From positions 1-5,929 of IMG/VR virus record IMGVR_UViG_3300045988_012347: a stretch of 5,929 nt of DNA; one strand, 5' to 3'. Below the pieces are notes generated by a model, which saw nothing but the letters and a program-made list of their open reading frames with translations, had not been told where the DNA came from and ran no database searches. The translations under genes and the position numbers were made by a program. Position 1 is the first letter of the stretch, and each line of letters opens with the position of its first letter. Positions 1-5,929 of the stretch are shown piece after piece. The stretch is from a virus.

Positions 1-119
1 ATGTTTTTCGTCCGCTTTGCAGTCTGCGTGAAACGTCGCTGGTCGCCACGGCCTGCGCCGCTACGATGTGCCATTGTGTCACCTCCTTTTATCCTTTGTC
101 TGCATTGTATCAAAAAAAC
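1..119. repeat. Terminal direct repeat, left copy (circular-genome assembly overlap)
   Basis: Nt 1-119 match nt 5811-5929 base for base, implying a circular unit of 5810 nt. On the minus strand this copy carries the first 74 nt (1-74) of the small basic ORF whose complete copy is at 5768-5884. It also carries that ORF's SD and the -10 box of promoter P1. Confidence 0.95.
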
Positions 120-132
120 TCCCGGCTGTCAA
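104..132 (-). promoter_or_regulatory. Sigma70/SigA-type promoter P1 for the main (structural/lysis) operon
   Basis: The minus strand reads TTGACA (127-132), a 17-nt spacer, TGa (110-112) and TACAAT (104-109). That is a perfect -35, optimal spacing, an extended -10 TG and a 5/6 -10. It lies about 20 nt upstream of the AAAGGAGGTGA SD and the ATG (74, equivalent to 5884) of the basic ORF. Confidence 0.7.
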
Positions 133-140
133 CCGGGAGT
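112..140 (-). terminator. Rho-independent terminator ending the 60-aa ORF cassette and the genome-length transcript
   Basis: Minus strand: ACTCCCGG-TTGACAG-CCGGGAGT, a perfect 8-bp GC-rich stem (118-125/133-140) with a 7-nt loop. It runs straight into seven T residues (the last stem T plus 112-117). It sits 11 nt downstream of the TAA stop at 151-153. Confidence 0.85.
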
Positions 141-150
141 TTGCTTTTGT

Positions 151-483: not shown

Positions 484-1488
484 CTAGATTCCGGTCCGTT
501 CCTTTATTGGCTCACGCCATTTTTGTTTCTGCTTGTCTTTCTCCTTCTGGATTTCGAGGTATGTCGAGTACAATACACTCGTGTTTTGCTCAAGGTTTAC
601 GAGACTTAGCACCGCGTTTCTCCTTCTTTTGGCTCTTACCTCTCTCAGCTCGTCAGAATGGGCCTTGAAATAGCTTTCAGCGTCTTGGTTGGTATCCTTA
701 TCGAGTAGCTTGTCAAAGTACCTCGGTGGCTTTTTCTGCCGCCCTCCAGCGCACGTTATGTTATCGGTTTCAAGTATTTCGTTCATGTGCTCTTTAAGGT
801 ACTTCTCCCCGATGCCTTTTGACATGATTCTAAACTCTGGTTCTCTGCCTTGCATCCAGTATTTTGCATTCTGCTCTGCGCCGATGGCTTTCTTGTTGAC
901 GTACTGCGCTACATACGCGTATGAACCCGGTGCTGCTGGTGAGAAGTCTACAAAGCCTTTTCCCCAGAGGTTTGTTAGCCACTCGCTCTTGAAGTACGAG
1001 TTGCCTTTCTGGTTTTTGTACCACTGTCCATCCTCCGGCTTTAATCCAAAGAAAATTCCGTGATAGTGCGGTCGCTTTGTCCTGTCTCCGTATTCGCCCG
1101 CAATAAAGTACTTTATCGGCTTCTTGTATGCCTTTCTTAGACGTTTTAGAAATAGCTGTACGTCTCTTTTACTTACTGTCTGAGATTGTATACTCTGGTA
1201 GCCTTTTATGATTTCTCCATAAGGTACGTTTTCTTCGTCATAGGTCATCGTTACAAAAATCACGTCTTCCCAGTCTTTTGCTTCAAGCTCGATTCTCGTT
1301 GCCCACTGGTCGGCCATTTGTTTTCTGCAATACTCACACTGCCCACAAGGTAATAACGCGAGGCTTCCTTTTTTGACGCCGTCCATGATGGTTATTTCCA
1401 TGCCCTGCTTCTTTAGGTTTCTTAAACTTCCCCACATTCGCGGCTTGTTCAAGTTCATCTGAAAAACATTCGGATTTGTACATGGCAT
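484..1488 (-). CDS. VP4: Rolling-circle replication initiator protein (Microviridae VP4 / gpA-like HUH endonuclease)
   Basis: 334 aa. The N-terminus MPCTNP is typical of gokushovirus VP4. A CxxCxxC cluster (PCGQCEYCR) is present. RCR motif 1 is FVTMTYD. The HUH motif is PHYHGIFFG (H codons at 1066-1068 and 1060-1062). The double-tyrosine motif AYVAQYVNKK (Y codons at 913-915 and 901-903) is nearly identical to the phiX174 gpA active-site segment YVAKYVNKK. Confidence 0.93.
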   Translation of the reverse strand: MPCTNPNVFQMNLNKPRMWGSLRNLKKQGMEITIMDGVKKGSLALLPCGQCEYCRKQMADQWATRIELEAKDWEDVIFVTMTYDEENVPYGEIIKGYQSIQSQTVSKRDVQLFLKRLRKAYKKPIKYFIAGEYGDRTKRPHYHGIFFGLKPEDGQWYKNQKGNSYFKSEWLTNLWGKGFVDFSPAAPGSYAYVAQYVNKKAIGAEQNAKYWMQGREPEFRIMSKGIGEKYLKEHMNEILETDNITCAGGRQKKPPRYFDKLLDKDTNQDAESYFKAHSDELREVRAKRRRNAVLSLVNLEQNTSVLYSTYLEIQKEKDKQKQKWREPIKERTGI

Positions 1489-2000: not shown

Positions 2001-2846
2001 TTAATTGCCTGTGTAGCCTCTCATTGGGCTTGTGTTCGGCATCAGCGGAACATTTTTCAGGTGGTCGCTCCACTTTCTTGCTCCTTCGTCAACCGTTTTT
2101 CTCACGTTGTTGCCTATTTCTTTGCCTGTGTCTAGGAGTTTGTCTCCGAGTTCGTTGGCCATATAGCTATAGTCTGCCACTTGTTTTGCGCTTGACTGTG
2201 CAAGGCTGCTTGCGGCTTCTTTCCAGCTCTTTGCCGAGTGGTATTGCTTCGCGCTCGTGGCTTTCTTTGCCAGCTCTAAATACCGGTTTGCTAGCTCTGC
2301 CGTGTTGTTGCCATACTCGTACATTGCTGAGACAGACGCTGCTTGTGCGCTCTGCTGGTTATATCTCTGTGTTCCGATACTTGCTGATGCTCCTGACGGT
2401 GTTGCTGTTGCTCCGTTGTTTGCCGCCAGAATTGGATTTATGCCGGCTGCTATCATGTCTTTTACGGTGTCTTGATACGCTGTGCCTCGCATTTCCTTTT
2501 CAAAGGCTCTCTCTGCCGCTGCTTCGGCGCTGTTGTACTTTTTTGCGCTTGCTTGGCTTCCCGCGTTCATGATGTTACTGAGCATCGACGACATAAAGCT
2601 CATCATGTTCGCATTGGTTACGCTTCCCTGATTGCTGTACGTTCCGAAGCCCGTCGGCGTTCCGATTTGCGTAGAACCGATTTGCTGCGGAGCCGTCAGA
2701 CTGCCTGTGGTTGTCTCGTTTCCGTCGTTGTACTCTTGTCCGCCTCTGTCTGTTTTCGTTGCGCTGGAACTGTTTGAATTTGTGATGACATTGCTTAACA
2801 GGCTAAGTCCCTGCATCACAAAAGGCATCCATGATAAAAGACTCAT
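2001..2846 (-). CDS. VP2: Minor capsid / DNA pilot protein (Microviridae VP2)
   Basis: 281 aa. It has a hydrophobic N-terminus, and the rest is Ala/Ser/Gln/Asn/Gly/Thr-rich and low in complexity. It contains the conserved gokushovirus VP2 segment AYQDTVKDMIAAGINPILA (the AG-[LI]-NP-x-L motif). Its position directly after VP1 fits the family gene order. The start is ATG 2846-2844. The SD AAGGAG (2877-2882) lies upstream of the intervening hairpin. Confidence 0.8.
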   Translation of the reverse strand: MSLLSWMPFVMQGLSLLSNVITNSNSSSATKTDRGGQEYNDGNETTTGSLTAPQQIGSTQIGTPTGFGTYSNQGSVTNANMMSFMSSMLSNIMNAGSQASAKKYNSAEAAAERAFEKEMRGTAYQDTVKDMIAAGINPILAANNGATATPSGASASIGTQRYNQQSAQAASVSAMYEYGNNTAELANRYLELAKKATSAKQYHSAKSWKEAASSLAQSSAKQVADYSYMANELGDKLLDTGKEIGNNVRKTVDEGARKWSDHLKNVPLMPNTSPMRGYTGN

Positions 2847-2874
2847 TCAAAAATAGCCGGGACTTTGCCCGGCT
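2847..2874 (-). terminator. Intrinsic terminator/attenuator between VP1 and VP2
   Basis: Minus strand: AGCCGGG-CAAAGT-CCCGGCT, a perfect 7-bp stem (2855-2861/2868-2874) with a 6-nt loop, followed by ATTTTTGA (2847-2854) and then the VP2 ATG. It lies 10 nt after the VP1 TAA stop. Confidence 0.7.
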
Positions 2875-2884
2875 TTCTCCTTTC

Positions 2885-4543
2885 TTAAATTCTTTCGATT
2901 CCCGGAATGCTGTAGATGGGCATTTCCCGGAACCATGTTTCGTTGTACCAGAAGTCACAAAGGAACTGGTGCGCCTTTGCGCTTGTTACCGCAATCGTGC
3001 GGTCAATGTTTTCGCGTCCTTCCTGAATCCACTCCGCCGACAGTGTCGGCAGAGTGTCGTAATCGTCCGCATAGTGCCATGCATCCAGAGACTTTTTGTA
3101 GTTTGAACGCATTTCGCCGGTCACATAGGAAGGTTTGTACCTGTAGTCGGCCCAGCACTCCTGATACCCGAAGATTTCGTCATCTTTTTCCGTACCCTGT
3201 GCGAAGATTTCGCGGTTATATACCGGCTGTTCTCCGAGTGCCGCTAGCCGCGGGTCGTAGTATGTGAATCTTCCTTTTCGCGTCCATTTGGTTGTGAGTC
3301 CCTGCTGGTAGCTGTGCTCCACTCGTACCACTGCCAGACCGATGATATACCCGTACTCAGTTGCCGCGTAGTCCACCATCTGTTTGCTACAGGTCGTCAG
3401 ACTGTATGCCGCCGTGTTGCCCAGTGCCTGACCGGTCTGTTCGTCCGTCTGGCTTGTCTGGATGACCTGATTGACATTGATAGCGATTCTCTGCCCGCCG
3501 ATGTACTCCGGGATTTGCAGGCGGCTGTCCGGGCTTGTCACTCCCCATGTGCCGGAAAGGAACTCGCGGTAGCGCGTGCCATTTCTGGCATCGGCCTCGA
3601 AGATGTGTTGCAATGCGATGGCCTGTCTCAGGTCGTTGATGGTTATTGCGGTTACGCTGCTGAGGTCTGCCCCCAGGTATGCCGATGCTGAGTTTGTGTC
3701 GTCATTTTCATCTTTTCCAGATACCAGTGTGACACTGTTTTTGTAGTCTTCTCCGTTGTTTCCGCTGTTGTACATCGTCGGGTTGCTGTAATTGGTACTG
3801 ATAAGTTCTATTGTTTGTTTGAACTCTTGGGTTAAGTTTCTGTCGTCGTACATCTTTACTTTTGCAGGGCCGCCCAGCGGCAGGCTGATTTCCTCTGCAT
3901 TTTTCAACGGCGAAGGTAGGCAGGATGTGAAGTAGTCGTGGAACTTACCAGCTCTTGCCGGTTTCATCGCGTACAGCGTTGCTTCGTTGGTGTTGGTCGT
4001 CTTGTCGATGGCGTTTGCGCTTGACGTCTCTTTGCTGGCGTCTGCGTTCGTGCCGCTGTCATCCGACTTTTTGTAGCCCAGCATTAACGGCGCTTCGAGG
4101 TTTTCATCTCGAAACCACTCGTTGTAAATCATCGCATAGGCCCGCGCCGGGAGTGCGTTTACCTTCAGTGCGTTGGTCACTTCGGTCGGCAATCCGAAAT
4201 AGTCGCCAATACTGCCGTTTGCGAGTCCGCTTGTGCCGCCGATTGTGCAGGTTGGAGTGGAATACTCCGTCTTTTCTGCCCAGTAATCGGTGTTGTTCTC
4301 GCCGAACATATTTTCAAAGTGTTCCCACAAGAGACGTGACGGTACAAAGAAAAAGTATGTGTCCATGTAGCAGTTATCCATGATGGGATAGATAGGCGTA
4401 CTCATACGGATAAGGCCGTTCAGCTGTACTCTCGCGGTATCACCCGGGAGCACTTCGTCCATATAGATAGGCACCAACTCGCCTTCGTTGATGGTCGTCA
4501 ACAGCTGGTGTCCTCGGTCAAATTTAGACCGTGGTCTCTGCAT
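2885..4543 (-). CDS. VP1: Major capsid protein (Microviridae VP1 / F-like)
   Basis: 552 aa and the largest ORF. The N-terminal segment SKFDRGHQLLTTINEGELVPIYMDEVLPGDT matches the conserved Microviridae capsid N-terminus (F-D-x-S/G-H..T...G.L.P....EVLPGDT). Length is typical for gokushovirus-like VP1. Confidence 0.95.
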   Translation of the reverse strand: MQRPRSKFDRGHQLLTTINEGELVPIYMDEVLPGDTARVQLNGLIRMSTPIYPIMDNCYMDTYFFFVPSRLLWEHFENMFGENNTDYWAEKTEYSTPTCTIGGTSGLANGSIGDYFGLPTEVTNALKVNALPARAYAMIYNEWFRDENLEAPLMLGYKKSDDSGTNADASKETSSANAIDKTTNTNEATLYAMKPARAGKFHDYFTSCLPSPLKNAEEISLPLGGPAKVKMYDDRNLTQEFKQTIELISTNYSNPTMYNSGNNGEDYKNSVTLVSGKDENDDTNSASAYLGADLSSVTAITINDLRQAIALQHIFEADARNGTRYREFLSGTWGVTSPDSRLQIPEYIGGQRIAINVNQVIQTSQTDEQTGQALGNTAAYSLTTCSKQMVDYAATEYGYIIGLAVVRVEHSYQQGLTTKWTRKGRFTYYDPRLAALGEQPVYNREIFAQGTEKDDEIFGYQECWADYRYKPSYVTGEMRSNYKKSLDAWHYADDYDTLPTLSAEWIQEGRENIDRTIAVTSAKAHQFLCDFWYNETWFREMPIYSIPGIERI

Positions 4544-4568
4544 TCGCGGTACTTGCGCGAAGTGCGAT

Positions 4569-4982
4569 TCACTGTTCCGGTTTATTGTCGTTCACCTCTT
4601 CCTTTTTTTCCTCCTGCTTCGGCGGTTCGGTCTTCTGCTCCTTCTTCAGCTGTTCCAGCGTTTCCGCTGCCGCCTGTGCTTTCTCGTGCATTGTTACCAC
4701 GTCCTTAGGCAGGTTTTCCAACGGCGTCCCCTCGGTGTATACCATGCTCTTTGCCTTGATGCTTATATCGCCAGCTTCCAGCCGTGCGATTGCGCTTGCG
4801 AGGTCGTAGCCCTCACCGGCCCGCTGGATTTTCTCGTATACGTTCTCGGGCGGCTGTTCGATGTACTCGGTTGTGCCGTTCGCCCGCTTCACTGCTTTCC
4901 ACGTCGGTGCCATTTCTGAGCCTGCCTTGTTCGGCACTCTCTCGGTCGGCATCCCGAAGAACTTTACGTTAGGATTTGTCAT
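4569..4982 (-). CDS. VP3: Internal scaffolding protein (Microviridae VP3-like)
   Basis: The track ORF starts at TTG 4988. ATG 4982-4980 is preceded by AAAGGAG with a 7-nt spacer, giving 137 aa (MTNPNVKFF...). The segment NVYEKIQRAGEGYDLASAIARLEAGDISI resembles the gokushovirus VP3 core (Y-E-x-IQ...D-[IL]..I..R...GD). The C-terminal tail is charged. The position immediately upstream of VP1 fits the family order. Confidence 0.7.
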   Translation of the reverse strand: MTNPNVKFFGMPTERVPNKAGSEMAPTWKAVKRANGTTEYIEQPPENVYEKIQRAGEGYDLASAIARLEAGDISIKAKSMVYTEGTPLENLPKDVVTMHEKAQAAAETLEQLKKEQKTEPPKQEEKKEEVNDNKPEQ

Positions 4983-5226
4983 TTCCAAACTCCTTTTTCA
5001 GGTCAACCAGTTTGCACAGCTGTTTCGGCTCTGCCCCGTACATCTCGCCGGTTTCGCTGTTGAACTCGCCCAGCTCTACGAGGCTGATGTCTTCGATTTC
5101 CTGCAACGTGCCTTCGTCTGCCTTCCACTTTGCCGTGCGGATTGCCTGCGCCCGGTTCTGCTGAAGGAACGGATTGCTGTAGCCATTGGTCACGCTGTCA
5201 TGAAAACTGTAAAACGTGTATTTCAT
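4969..5226 (-). CDS. Conserved small Microviridae nonstructural protein (ORF5-like family; function unknown)
   Basis: The track ORF starts at GTG 5235 inside the SD. ATG 5226-5224 follows AAGGTGGA with a 5-nt spacer, giving 85 aa (MKYTFYSFHDSVTNGYSNPFLQQNRAQAIRTAK...ISLVELGEFNSETGEMYG). The pattern [FY]S-x-xD-S/K...PF.....A.R.F ... L.ELGEFD..TGE matches, from memory, a family common in gokushovirus-type genomes. It forms an ATGA start/stop overlap with the peptidase gene and a 14-nt overlap with VP3. Confidence 0.65.
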   Translation of the reverse strand: MKYTFYSFHDSVTNGYSNPFLQQNRAQAIRTAKWKADEGTLQEIEDISLVELGEFNSETGEMYGAEPKQLCKLVDLKKEFGNDKS

Positions 5227-5615
5227 TTTTTCCACCTTGCCTTTTTTTCTCGTGTGTCGATATGTGTAAAGGTCCAGTAGCTCCCGATGCCGTATTTGTT
5301 CTGGTATTTATTTTTCAGGTACTGTTGCACCTTACTCGCCGGAACTCCTTTTACTCGAATATCTGCCGCCGTGCCTTTTGTGTGCTGTGAGTTTTTCACA
5401 CCGCCGATTTTCGCGTTGTATTCCGGTGTCCTGTAGCCACTGGTGATTATTACAGGTGTGTTAAAGTGTTCTCTTACATCTTCCAGCACTTTTACCAGCT
5501 CTGTGTCGATGAGGATTTTGTCACACCTGCCGTCTTTTTGTGCAAATTCTTTGATTCTGAAGTGTGTGCTCACTCGTTGGGCGCCCTGATGAAATAGGCT
5601 GTATTCATTTAGCAC
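5223..5615 (-). CDS. Zinc D-Ala-D-Ala carboxypeptidase-fold cell-wall hydrolase (Peptidase_M15 family, putative endolysin)
   Basis: 130 aa. The start is GTG 5615-5613, with the SD GAGGA 6 nt upstream. Motifs are STHFRIKEF, ITSGYRTPEYN, SQHTKGTAADI (H78 codon 5382-5384, D85 codon 5361-5363) and FTHIDTR (H118 codon 5262-5264). This is the H-x6-D...H zinc triad and the SGYR/SxHxxGxAxD signature of the M15 (VanX/Peptidase_M15_3-like) fold. No signal peptide or TM segment is present. Confidence 0.88.
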   Translation of the reverse strand: MLNEYSLFHQGAQRVSTHFRIKEFAQKDGRCDKILIDTELVKVLEDVREHFNTPVIITSGYRTPEYNAKIGGVKNSQHTKGTAADIRVKGVPASKVQQYLKNKYQNKYGIGSYWTFTHIDTREKKARWKK

Positions 5616-5733
5616 TGTTTTCCTCGCTTTCGTCGTTGTCTGCGTCCTCTGCGTCCTTCACGACTGCATGATAGATTTTATCTACCATCTCCAGAATTTT
5701 CAGCAGAGTGTTCATGGTTTCCTTAAAGTCCAT
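5605..5733 (-). CDS. Hypothetical 42-aa acidic protein
   Basis: The track ORF 5605-5892 (95 aa) starts at a GTG in another gene's SD and runs across the basic ORF in a different frame. The internal ATG 5733-5731 has a strong SD (GAAGGAAGGTGA, about 5-nt spacer). Product: MDFKETMNTLLKILEMVDKIYHAVVKDAEDADNDESEENSAK, a predicted helix followed by an acidic tail. Its stop overlaps the peptidase start by 11 nt. Confidence 0.55.
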   Translation of the reverse strand: MDFKETMNTLLKILEMVDKIYHAVVKDAEDADNDESEENSAK

Positions 5734-5767: not shown

Positions 5768-5884
5768 TTACAGCCGGATGCCGCCCCGGCTGACCTTCGG
5801 TCGGACGTTGATGTTTTTCGTCCGCTTTGCAGTCTGCGTGAAACGTCGCTGGTCGCCACGGCCTGCGCCGCTACGATGTGCCAT
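5768..5884 (-). CDS. 38-aa highly basic protein, putative DNA-binding/packaging protein (phiX174 J / gokushovirus ORF8 analogue)
   Basis: This ORF is not in the track because it is too short. ATG 5884-5882 is preceded by AAAGGAGGTGA with a 5-nt spacer, and the TAA stop is at 5770-5768. Product: MAHRSGAGRGDQRRFTQTAKRTKNINVRPKVSRGGIRL, with 8 R, 3 K and 1 D. It is the first gene after promoter P1. Its 5' part is duplicated at 1-74 by the terminal overlap. Confidence 0.7.
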   Translation of the reverse strand: MAHRSGAGRGDQRRFTQTAKRTKNINVRPKVSRGGIRL

Positions 5885-5929
5885 TGTGTCACCTCCTTTT
5901 ATCCTTTGTCTGCATTGTATCAAAAAAAC
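5811..5929. repeat. Terminal direct repeat, right copy (circular-genome assembly overlap)
   Basis: Identical to nt 1-119. Confidence 0.95.

Follow-up and report, generated by a model that had tools for sequence, protein, structure and literature searches.

The phiX174 protein E, the amurin of the Bullavirinae, is a small transmembrane protein that is overprinted in gene D and inhibits MraY. A section of Roux et al. 2012 (PMC3394797) is given to 11 microviral M15_3 peptidases, five of them in gokushoviruses, with members in human-gut Gokushovirinae and Alpavirinae, and proposes both an endolysin role and horizontal transfer; in later papers, peptidase or lysis genes are regular features of the Amoyvirinae, Occultatumvirinae and Tainavirinae. 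Gp7 of Ebor (Tainavirinae), a peptidoglycan hydrolase verified by zymogram, is the one microvirus hydrolase with proven activity (PMC11980548). Among tailed phages, LysPM1 of Proteus phage Homer is a Zn-dependent lytic endolysin with an SxHxxGxAxD motif, and other characterised M15A phage endolysins come from Burkholderia phage ST79 and Shewanella phage Spp001 (Spp64) (PMC13461873).

A preliminary description of the locus analysed here reported an M15 zinc peptidase gene in a microvirus and held that such peptidases had been noted only sporadically, which understates a literature that includes the 11 proteins above and the annotated peptidase of KX513864.1. The finding itself is confirmed as correct and is largely ordinary, because microviral genes of this kind have been known since 2012; by itself, it adds one genome to a recognised gene class.

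The stretch of DNA analysed (the window; 5,929 nt) is identical at positions 1–119 and 5811–5929, and therefore represents a closed circle of 5,810 nt. The virus is a small circular single-stranded-DNA gut phage of the Gokushovirinae (Microviridae), the subfamily in which the nearest records are classed; with membership defined by genes for the VP1 capsid, VP2 pilot, VP3 scaffold, VP4 Rep and VP5 on one strand of a circle of ~4.5–6 kb, all five were found on one strand of the 5,810-nt circle (Table 1). The VP3 gene is the next after VP5 in the same direction, and VP5 itself likely begins with the ATG at 5226, the homologous methionine being the VP5 start in relatives; the open reading frame listing has an upstream GTG at 5235. 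The ORF8-like protein (pI 12, C-terminus RGGIRL, dN/dS 0.06) is presumably a DNA-binding packaging protein analogous to phiX174 J, a label taken from gokushovirus ORF8 generally. Located 30 nt upstream of its start (position 74, equivalent to 5884), the hairpin and promoter-like element is, by consensus match, a candidate promoter of an ORF8–small ORF–peptidase–VP5–VP3–VP1 unit. An Rfam search of the window gave no credible match, and Pfam and PHROG searches (E ≤ 1) of the accessory ORFs and the small ORF yielded nothing significant, a 63-aa accessory ORF alone giving marginal hits below cut-off.

Table 1. Features of the window, with positions in the 5,929-nt stretch and the evidence for each assignment
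Feature	Position	Strand	Evidence
Hairpin then T-run, overlapping promoter-like TTGACA-17-TACAAT (11/12 matches)	104..142	-	Consensus match only
VP4 replication initiator gene	484..1488	-	Pfam and PHROG profile matches
VP2 DNA pilot protein gene	2001..2846	-	Pilot-protein PHROGs
VP1 major capsid gene	2885..4543	-	Phage_F, E=4e-147; PHROG
VP3 internal scaffold gene	4569..4988	-	Chlamy_scaf, E=2.9e-4, under the Pfam cut-off, plus synteny with relatives
VP5/ORF5 gene	4969..5226	-	Phage_ORF5, E=3.6e-13
Peptidase_M15_3 (MEROPS M15A-type) gene	5223..5615	-	Pfam, PHROG, motifs, AlphaFold2, Foldseek, dN/dS
FTHID, codons F116–D120, (W/F)xH motif	5256..5270	-	H118, predicted third Zn ligand
SQHTKGTAAD, codons S76–D85, SxHxxGxAxD zinc-hydrolase motif	5361..5390	-	H78 and D85, predicted Zn ligands
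Small acidic 42-aa ORF	5605..5733	-	Conservation, dN/dS; no Pfam or PHROG match
Shine-Dalgarno-like GAGGA	5621..5625	-	5 nt upstream of the peptidase GTG, within the 3' end of the 42-aa ORF
ORF8-like small basic protein gene, 38 aa	5768..5884	-	phrog_10695, E=1.3e-5 (function of that PHROG unknown)

The peptidase ORF (5615–5223, minus strand) encodes 130 aa (15 kDa, pI 9.8, net charge about +11) from a GTG, relatives having ATG or GTG at the homologous position. The two overlaps claimed in the preliminary description are both present: the TGA of the 42-aa ORF (5607–5605) falls within the opening 11 nt of the peptidase ORF, and the peptidase TGA (5225–5223) overlaps the VP5/ORF5 ATG at 5226 to give ATGA. 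In profile searches, the protein matched PF08291 (Peptidase_M15_3) with 98 bits against a gathering cut-off of 23.2 (E=4.5e-28, profile positions 3–108 of 108), PF05951 with E=4e-9, and PHROG 894, 'endolysin', with E=4.1e-45. An alignment of 25 sequences (50–89% identity) leaves S76, H78, G81, A83, D85, H118 and D120 invariant, D120 being the sole conserved acidic residue near H118, with R62 and F116 likewise invariant or nearly so. Because phmmer against PDB sequences returned 1LBU alone, and weakly (E=0.0029, over the H-x6-D segment), the protein had to be placed by fold search. The AlphaFold2 model obtained with a 25-sequence alignment reached a pLDDT of 92.7 and a pTM of 0.87 (pLDDT 55.6 from the single sequence), and with this predicted model as query the top Foldseek matches in the PDB all have the LAS/Hedgehog-DD-peptidase fold, the best being 1LBU (Zn DD-peptidase; prob 1.0, TMq 0.62), followed by VanY, Shh-N, LdcB, EndoT5, Ply500 and ChiX; in BFVD, phage 'Peptidase' proteins matched with TMq 0.89–0.95. 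With an HMM score above threshold, the SxHxxGxAxD motif, the (W/F)xH motif with its acidic residue and the predicted fold, the 130-aa protein is confirmed as an M15A/Peptidase_M15_3 zinc peptidase. The ORF and its H78/D85/H118 triad, first recognised from the letters, are thus borne out by coordinates, motifs and HMM, and the structure comparison that had been proposed as a check places the predicted model in the M15 fold.

The peptidase gene is under purifying selection (dN/dS 0.16 over 23 genomes, with VP5 similar at 0.19), and an M15_3 gene is present in all 53 of the 53 evaluable IMG/VR genomes whose VP4 is at least 80% identical. More than 100 clusters of the peptidase were obtained at 90% identity, mostly from contigs no longer than about 6 kb, with many in the range 5.4–6.1 kb. 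The earlier contention that this is an integrated phage gene and not a contaminant is supported, the gene being under selection. Among relatives with VP4 80–91% identical, M15_3 alleles are just 40–44% identical and lie at a different insertion site, and in a tree the microviral M15_3 proteins are not monophyletic; such non-orthologous alleles at another site in close relatives point to repeated capture or cassette exchange. The putative endolysin of this gut gokushovirus lineage is fixed but modular, with non-orthologous M15_3 alleles at two insertion sites in near-identical backbones, an arrangement that marks the VP4–VP5 region as a cassette-exchange hot spot and suggests that degrading the wall enzymatically is strongly selected for.

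A homologue search found 775 phage records matching the peptidase, many labelled endolysin, and its matches included roughly 100 microvirus records. A Pfam holin adjoins all six of the close homologues inspected in Clostridia and Gammaproteobacteria prophages (three Phage_holin_4_1, one Phage_holin_1, one LydA holin and one r1t holin); the position of the closest tailed-phage and prophage homologues beside holins suggests that an endolysin was captured without its holin. The search for a donor lineage advocated in the preliminary description led to tailed-phage and prophage cassettes but to no single donor: the type A allele is monophyletic in a neighbour-joining tree (189/200) with a sister group that shifts between bootstraps, and the nearest distances to it tie, at 0.58 for Yersinia phage phiR1-37 and 0.59 for an Oscillibacter MAG. 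Around the 80 closest cellular homologues, no VP1, VP2 or VP4 indicative of a microvirus prophage was found within 5 kb, and the VP1 gene had no blastn match in any of 5,426 complete E. coli genomes.

Transmembrane segments were sought in all three coding-strand frames, read stop-to-stop, of the window genome and six relatives. The window contains no holin-like protein, and no 19-residue Kyte–Doolittle window of 1.5 or more occurs in any coding-strand frame; the maximum, 1.38, falls at the VP2 N-terminus (MSLLSWMPFVMQGLSLLSNVI), the sole appreciably hydrophobic stretch of the coding strand. The small membrane protein of a canonical holin–endolysin(–spanin) cassette is absent from the coding-strand frames, none of which holds a pinholin, a spanin or an embedded transmembrane gene resembling phiX174 E; nor does any coding-strand frame of the window or the six relatives contain a transmembrane-bearing ORF of the E amurin type. 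The peptidase itself has neither a signal peptide nor a signal-arrest-release (SAR) segment, its N-terminus MLNEYSLFHQGAQRVSTHFRIKEF being hydrophilic with no hydrophobic window, and alleles B and C in relatives likewise have no N-terminal hydrophobic segment. The preliminary description, which had seen no holin-like protein and no signal on the enzyme, was accurate on both points.

Several hidden lysis genes were considered and rejected. Antisense holins were sought in a plus-strand ORF at 1907–2572 (221 aa) and in a very hydrophobic frame at 5593–5667 opposite the acidic tail, the latter with no ATG, GTG or TTG before 5668; Phe/Leu/Val-rich antisense frames occur genome-wide because the antisense strand is T-rich everywhere. 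Overprinted E-like ORFs within the peptidase gene (54 aa, in relatives) and within VP5 are Arg-rich, lack a transmembrane segment and show no conservation in the window, from which the peptidase-internal one is absent, and an open frame in the VP2–VP4 spacer containing 'STLLLLRLQQVI' gives just 17 aa from its sole start codon.

The gene product is quite probably a soluble cytoplasmic zinc M15A endolysin, captured from a tailed-phage or prophage cassette without the holin and used at progeny release. The gene would have been taken horizontally from a holin–endolysin cassette, leaving the holin behind, and inserted in the variable VP4–VP5 module, where the packed same-strand string that it forms with ORF8, the small acidic ORF, VP5, VP3 and VP1 makes co-expression with the late genes probable. 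As a soluble Zn-dependent peptidoglycan peptidase, the enzyme would degrade the host sacculus during progeny release, most likely after the membrane or wall has been damaged by another factor, which could be a core gokushovirus function (the hydrophobic N-terminus of VP2 being the sole visible candidate) or a host-dependent event. Both host lysis by the peptidase and its route to the wall are what we infer here, the enzyme being probably used to burst the host; against this, an endolysin confined to the cytoplasm should do no harm as long as the membrane is intact. In the literature searched, no enzymatic or genetic test of any gokushovirus M15_3 protein was found. Many gokushoviruses have no peptidase, among them 12 or more complete circular genomes of the locus survey described below, so enzymatic lysis of this kind is not a universal gokushovirus mechanism.

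The preliminary description had left the choice open between enzymatic lysis and a virion-associated entry hydrolase; lysis stands as the most plausible role, and entry finds no support in gene architecture or homologue context. A peptidase packaged in or on the capsid, digesting peptidoglycan locally during genome delivery and having no part in lysis, would have parallels in the M15A domains within large tailed-phage virion proteins (tape-measure and Gp5-like; 500–1190 aa) and in the trace amounts of Ebor Gp7 found in virions (PMC11980548). The peptidase is, however, free-standing and single-domain, as are its closest homologues, which lie beside holins and are not structural fusions; the gene architecture shows no hydrolase forming part of, or fused to, a structural protein, as would define a VAPGH; its site in the non-structural VP4–VP5 variable module shifts among close relatives; and the gene is wholly absent from many gokushoviruses, all of which renders entry very unlikely. 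Unlikely, too, is a non-lytic or auxiliary role, whether peptidoglycan remodelling, the dissolving of ghost sacculi or neighbouring cells after primary lysis, or the mere persistence of a decaying passenger: the absence of any export route fits an enzyme that meets peptidoglycan only once the cell has ruptured, and the peptidase is dispensable in other gokushovirus lineages, but decay is excluded by the dN/dS of 0.16, the invariant catalytic residues and the 53/53 retention, and the seemingly repeated, independent acquisition of one enzyme class speaks for a strong release-linked fitness effect. A finisher acting after rupture overlaps with the endolysin reading and does not contradict it.

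The 42-aa protein (pI 4.3) comprises an N-terminal amphipathic heptad helix (KILxMxDKIYHA core), with a hydrophobic residue at every a/d position, and an acidic tail; its ORF has a dN/dS of 0.09. It had been put forward as the possible partner of the peptidase, a role in which it would serve either as an export chaperone, comparable to Gp1 of mycobacteriophage Ms6, or as an inhibitor or antitoxin timing peptidase activity. The two genes are indeed adjacent (in the window they overlap by 11 nt; in at least 20 relatives 1–2 nt lie between them) and their products oppositely charged (−7 for the 42-aa protein, +11 for the peptidase). A dedicated partnership is nonetheless highly improbable: in a survey of 57 microvirus loci with a 42-aa-type ORF, 25 have the small ORF with its KILxMxDKIYHA core and no M15 or other peptidase gene, and elsewhere the peptidase lies upstream of the small ORF, split from it by ORF8 (loci L120 and L124) or by ~100 nt (L140 and relatives), with the small ORF still adjoining the ORF8-like gene in those lineages. 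The synteny of the pair, which the preliminary description had suggested surveying, is therefore not constant, the position of the small ORF relative to the peptidase varying and that beside the ORF8-like basic gene holding in nearly all arrangements inspected. The 42-aa ORF is a real, widely conserved small gokushovirus gene that is not peptidase-specific, and its acidic coiled-coil product is probably linked to the ORF8-like basic protein rather than to the peptidase; the protein is unannotated and strongly constrained, and travels with ORF8.

The peptidase always arrives without a holin, which sharpens the question of how a cytoplasmic endolysin acts in a phage of 5.8 kb that encodes no membrane protein. 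A more far-reaching and doubtful proposition is that a strictly cytoplasmic endolysin in 53/53 genomes with no membrane-spanning protein reflects holin-independent release, in which the VP2 pilot protein would take on a second role, late in infection, as membrane-lesion factor or, alternatively, an unrecognised non-transmembrane core gokushovirus protein would trigger envelope failure; such release, if true, would bear on the long-open question of gokushovirus cell lysis. As a compact (15 kDa), highly cationic enzyme, the peptidase is also a candidate enzybiotic.

Compared with described systems, the hydrolase encoded in the window is wholly unlike phiX174 E in mechanism, although E provides the lysis function of a fellow member of the Microviridae. 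Ebor Gp7 is likewise an accessory, tailed-phage-like peptidoglycan hydrolase gene product of a microvirus, but it belongs to another subfamily and apparently another enzyme family (HHpred match 6SSC; lysozyme in the authors' term), and Ebor has a gene for a predicted membrane protein of 45 aa (PMC11980548), unlike the window genome. The nearest annotated counterpart is KX513864.1, 'Human gokushovirus SH-CHD1', with 89% nucleotide identity over 89% of the window, whose protein ARQ15993.1, annotated 'peptidase M15', has 89% amino acid identity and equal length and synteny; the window genome is ~300 nt longer and has the extra accessory 63-aa ORF, the peptidase itself being no different. The best PDB match in both sequence and structure, 1LBU, is the Zn D-Ala-D-Ala carboxypeptidase of Streptomyces albus G and the MEROPS M15A type enzyme; it is ~20% identical to the window peptidase, has an additional N-terminal peptidoglycan-binding domain, and uses as general base a His that is replaced by Phe in the phage enzymes (PMC13461873). 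Enterobacterial podophage homologues are 48–59% identical and do not have the 13-residue N-terminal strand of the window peptidase. M15A endolysins of the LysPM1 group, which belong to tailed dsDNA phages equipped with holins and spanins, are likewise single-domain Peptidase_M15_3 proteins of ~115–130 aa with 1LBU as best structural match, and LysPM1 shares with the window peptidase the SxHxxGxAxD and (W/F)xH motifs, a conserved Arg and an Asp located two positions past the last His, so that H118 and D120 map, from published residue assignments, to LysPM1 H104 and D106 (PMC13461873).

The 130-aa protein is an M15 peptidase, as the preliminary description had proposed, and both profile and structure comparisons place it in that family. 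It matches Pfam Peptidase_M15_3 over the full domain (98 bits; cut-off 23.2; E=4.5e-28), Peptidase_M15_2 (E=4e-9) and PHROG 894, ‘endolysin’ (E=4.1e-45), and carries SQHTKGTAAD at 5390-5361 and FTHID at 5270-5256 on the minus strand; within a 25-sequence alignment (50-89% identity), S76, H78, G81, A83, D85, R62, H118 and D120 never vary, and F116 is almost constant. The same residues are singled out in LysPM1, an endolysin of the Peptidase_M15_3 type from a Proteus phage, with SxHxxGxAxD and (W/F)xH motifs, R47, and D106 two residues past the last His, the lysis of which is abolished by EDTA and partly restored by Zn (PMC13461873). Structure prediction yielded a pLDDT of 55.6 from the single sequence, and a pLDDT of 92.7 and pTM of 0.87 with the alignment; the first Foldseek match in the PDB was the M15A type enzyme 1LBU (prob 1.0, TMq 0.62), followed by VanY, the Sonic hedgehog N-domain, LdcB, the T5 L-Ala-D-Glu peptidase, Ply500 and ChiX, all of the LAS/Hedgehog-DD-peptidase fold, while the best predicted viral structures were phage ‘Peptidase’ proteins (TMq 0.89-0.95), with several Microvirus peptidases also matched.

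The gene is an integrated part of the phage genome. Reading of the sequence bore out the motif sites, coordinates and translational chaining previously described, with a GTG start preceded by GAGGA, an 11-nt overlap with the end of the 42-aa ORF, and an ATGA overlap joining the peptidase TGA to the VP5 ATG. Positions 1-119 equal 5811-5929 exactly, a terminal redundancy of 119 nt representing assembly overlap, and the record is therefore a complete, assembler-closed circle with a true length of 5,810 nt; the junction is spanned by ORFs close to the window ends, among them the ORF8-like gene, and all genes are coded on the minus strand. Across 23 related genomes, dN/dS was 0.16 for the peptidase, 0.19 for VP5 and 0.06 for ORF8. 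The protein database contains over 100 clusters of the peptidase at 90% identity, 68-89% identical to the window copy; most lie on contigs no longer than about 6 kb, many being microvirus-sized (5.4-6.1 kb). An M15_3 gene was present in 53/53 evaluable IMG/VR genomes with VP4 at least 80% identical to that of the window, a 54th locus being an incomplete fragment.

Features of the window in transcription order, followed by M15_3 loci of related microvirus records
Feature	Coordinates	Strand
VP4 (Rep)	1488-484	minus
Accessory ORF, 63 aa	342-151	minus
ORF8-like basic protein, 38 aa	5884-5768	minus
Acidic ORF, 42 aa	5733-5605	minus
Peptidase, 130 aa	5615-5223	minus
VP5	5226-4969	minus
VP3	4988-4569	minus
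VP1	4543-2885	minus
VP2	2846-2001	minus
Non-coding spacer, 512 nt, between VP2 stop and VP4 start	1489-2000	
M15_3 gene of L120	1633-2049	
M15_3 gene of L124	5209-5619	
M15_3 gene of L140	1595-1978	

Retention of the gene appears to be accompanied by exchange of its alleles. Four close relatives (L120, L121, L122 and L124) and around 30 others have VP4 80-91% and VP1 69-85% identical to those of the window, with non-orthologous M15_3 proteins only 40-45% identical to the window peptidase, inserted upstream of ORF8 as opposed to between the small ORF and VP5. Within the lineage, the window type (A) was counted 21 times, C 29 times, G twice and B once; type A also turns up on backbones whose VP4 is 81% identical (L170, L176), and alleles are therefore shuffled relative to backbone. 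The mismatch between allele type and VP4 backbone suggests that cassettes are exchanged in the VP4-VP5 module.

A tblastn search with the peptidase matched 775 phage records, many annotated as endolysin, the best besides two gokushoviruses being enterobacterial podophages (Vectrevirus and relatives) and Yersinia phage phiR1-37 (48-60% identity). In GTDB, sampled at one genome per species, the best matches were MAGs of Oscillospiraceae and other Clostridia (up to 57.7% full-length), then Providencia, Halomonas and other Gammaproteobacteria (about 50-55%); no microvirus genes were found at 80 GTDB homologue loci. At all six of the closest cellular or prophage loci inspected, the peptidase adjoins a Pfam holin (Phage_holin_4_1 at three, and Phage_holin_1, LydA holin and r1t holin), and in tailed phages, therefore, the family is a genuine endolysin; the microvirus acquired it alone, without the holin. 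In one gammaproteobacterial prophage, two further ORFs come after the peptidase, one having a TM-like hydrophobic N-terminus and the other a lipoprotein-like one; these are possible spanins. No single donor emerged for the window allele: the A clade is monophyletic (189/200) with an unstable sister group. For types C, D, G and H, the closest non-viral neighbours are Clostridia proteins, and microviral M15_3 proteins taken together do not form one clade.

The reported lack of a holin-like TM protein held when every stop-to-stop coding-strand frame of the window and six relatives was scanned for hydrophobicity: no 19-residue stretch in the window reached a Kyte-Doolittle value of 1.5, the maximum lying at the VP2 N-terminus (1.38, and 1.57-1.70 in the relatives). 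Long, very hydrophobic antisense ORFs, in the window for example at 1907-2572 (221 aa), 4488-4919 and 5593-5667 on the plus strand, were rejected as membrane genes, being composition artefacts found in all relatives because the coding strand is purine-rich; the most striking, 5593-5667, opposite the acidic tail, has no start codon. Neither the window peptidase nor alleles B and C contain a signal or SAR segment, and the peptidase is therefore predicted to be cytoplasmic, without an encoded route to the wall, a question to which the literature searched offers no answer. On the most economical reading, the peptidase would destroy the sacculus once some other event had breached the membrane or wall.

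The 42-aa acidic ORF, previously put forward as partner of the peptidase, is a genuine, strongly constrained gene encoding a KILxMxDKIYHA coiled-coil whose a/d heptad pattern is perfect for about 3.5 heptads and whose hydrophobic moment is high, ahead of an acidic tail (dN/dS of the helical core 0.09 across the 23 genomes). An alignment search of IMG/VR located it in 54 microvirus contigs; it occurs in many gokushoviruses with or without the peptidase (e.g. L037, L127-L156), and is left unannotated in the GenBank records inspected. A partnership with the peptidase is discounted: M15 is absent at 25/57 small-ORF loci pooled from IMG/VR and GenBank, many of them closed circles, and gene order relative to the peptidase (PEP) varies, from ORF8-small-PEP-VP5 in the window to PEP-ORF8-small-VP5 (L120, L124), PEP-small-ORF8-VP5 (L140) and small-ORF8-VP5 (L037, L127). 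The neighbour retained in nearly all arrangements inspected is the very basic ORF8-like gene, the sole exception seen being L036 (small-PEP-ORF8); we infer a putative functional link to the ORF8-like protein, perhaps the neutralisation of charge ahead of packaging.

Elsewhere, the VP4-ORF8 interval is a variable accessory slot, with a window occupant related to a 59-aa ORF of L012, L017 and L019; L003, L004, L007, L009, L016 and L120 hold an unrelated 60-66-aa ORF (MLKMTHYYELR...), and KX513864.1 and KT264784.1 have no accessory ORF there. The slot ORFs matched nothing significantly in Pfam or PHROG. The VP2-VP4 spacer lacks any credible ORF on the coding strand and may serve as an iteron-like, origin or regulatory region: GTTTTCAAC occurs five times exactly on the minus strand (1825, 1890, 1909, 1951, 1972) and twice on the plus strand with one mismatch each, its 9 hits in the window being equalled in 0/200 shuffles. 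Beyond the repeats come GC-rich hairpins and a tract of alternating GC/CA (~1550-1700), and KX513864.1 has a gap of comparable size (about 505 nt). At 104-142 (minus), a 12-bp hairpin and its T-run share sequence with a near-consensus TTGACA-17 nt-TACAAT with extended TG, 30 nt before the start codon of the ORF8-like gene; on consensus match only, this site could be the promoter of an ORF8-small ORF-peptidase-VP5-VP3-VP1 unit; a terminator-like GC-rich hairpin and T-run at 2855-2874 (minus), in the 38-nt gap between VP1 stop and VP2 start, may weaken transcription passing from the capsid gene into the pilot gene.

Among known systems, the orthologue in Human gokushovirus SH-CHD1 (KX513864.1; 89% identical) is annotated ‘peptidase M15’, and KT264784.1 carries an intact, unannotated 131-aa M15_3 ORF (~4461-4856; 75% identical), database counts of peptidase-bearing microviruses being therefore too low. 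M15 or other lysis peptidases have been described since 2012 in Amoyvirinae, Occultatumvirinae and Tainavirinae, and the single experimentally verified microvirus peptidoglycan hydrolase in the literature searched, Ebor Gp7 (PMC11980548), comes from another subfamily and seems to belong to another enzyme family. The observation is confirmed; the role given to the 42-aa ORF is not supported, and the core endolysin reading is sound but already published: Roux et al. 2012 (PMC3394797) described 11 such microviral genes, five in gut gokushoviruses, proposed an endolysin role, mentioned adjacent unknown ORFs, showed holin-adjacent homologues and argued for horizontal transfer in several independent events. 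The non-monophyly and allele swaps extend that last conclusion without changing it, and what remains of interest is the puzzle of the missing holin and the pattern of allele swapping.
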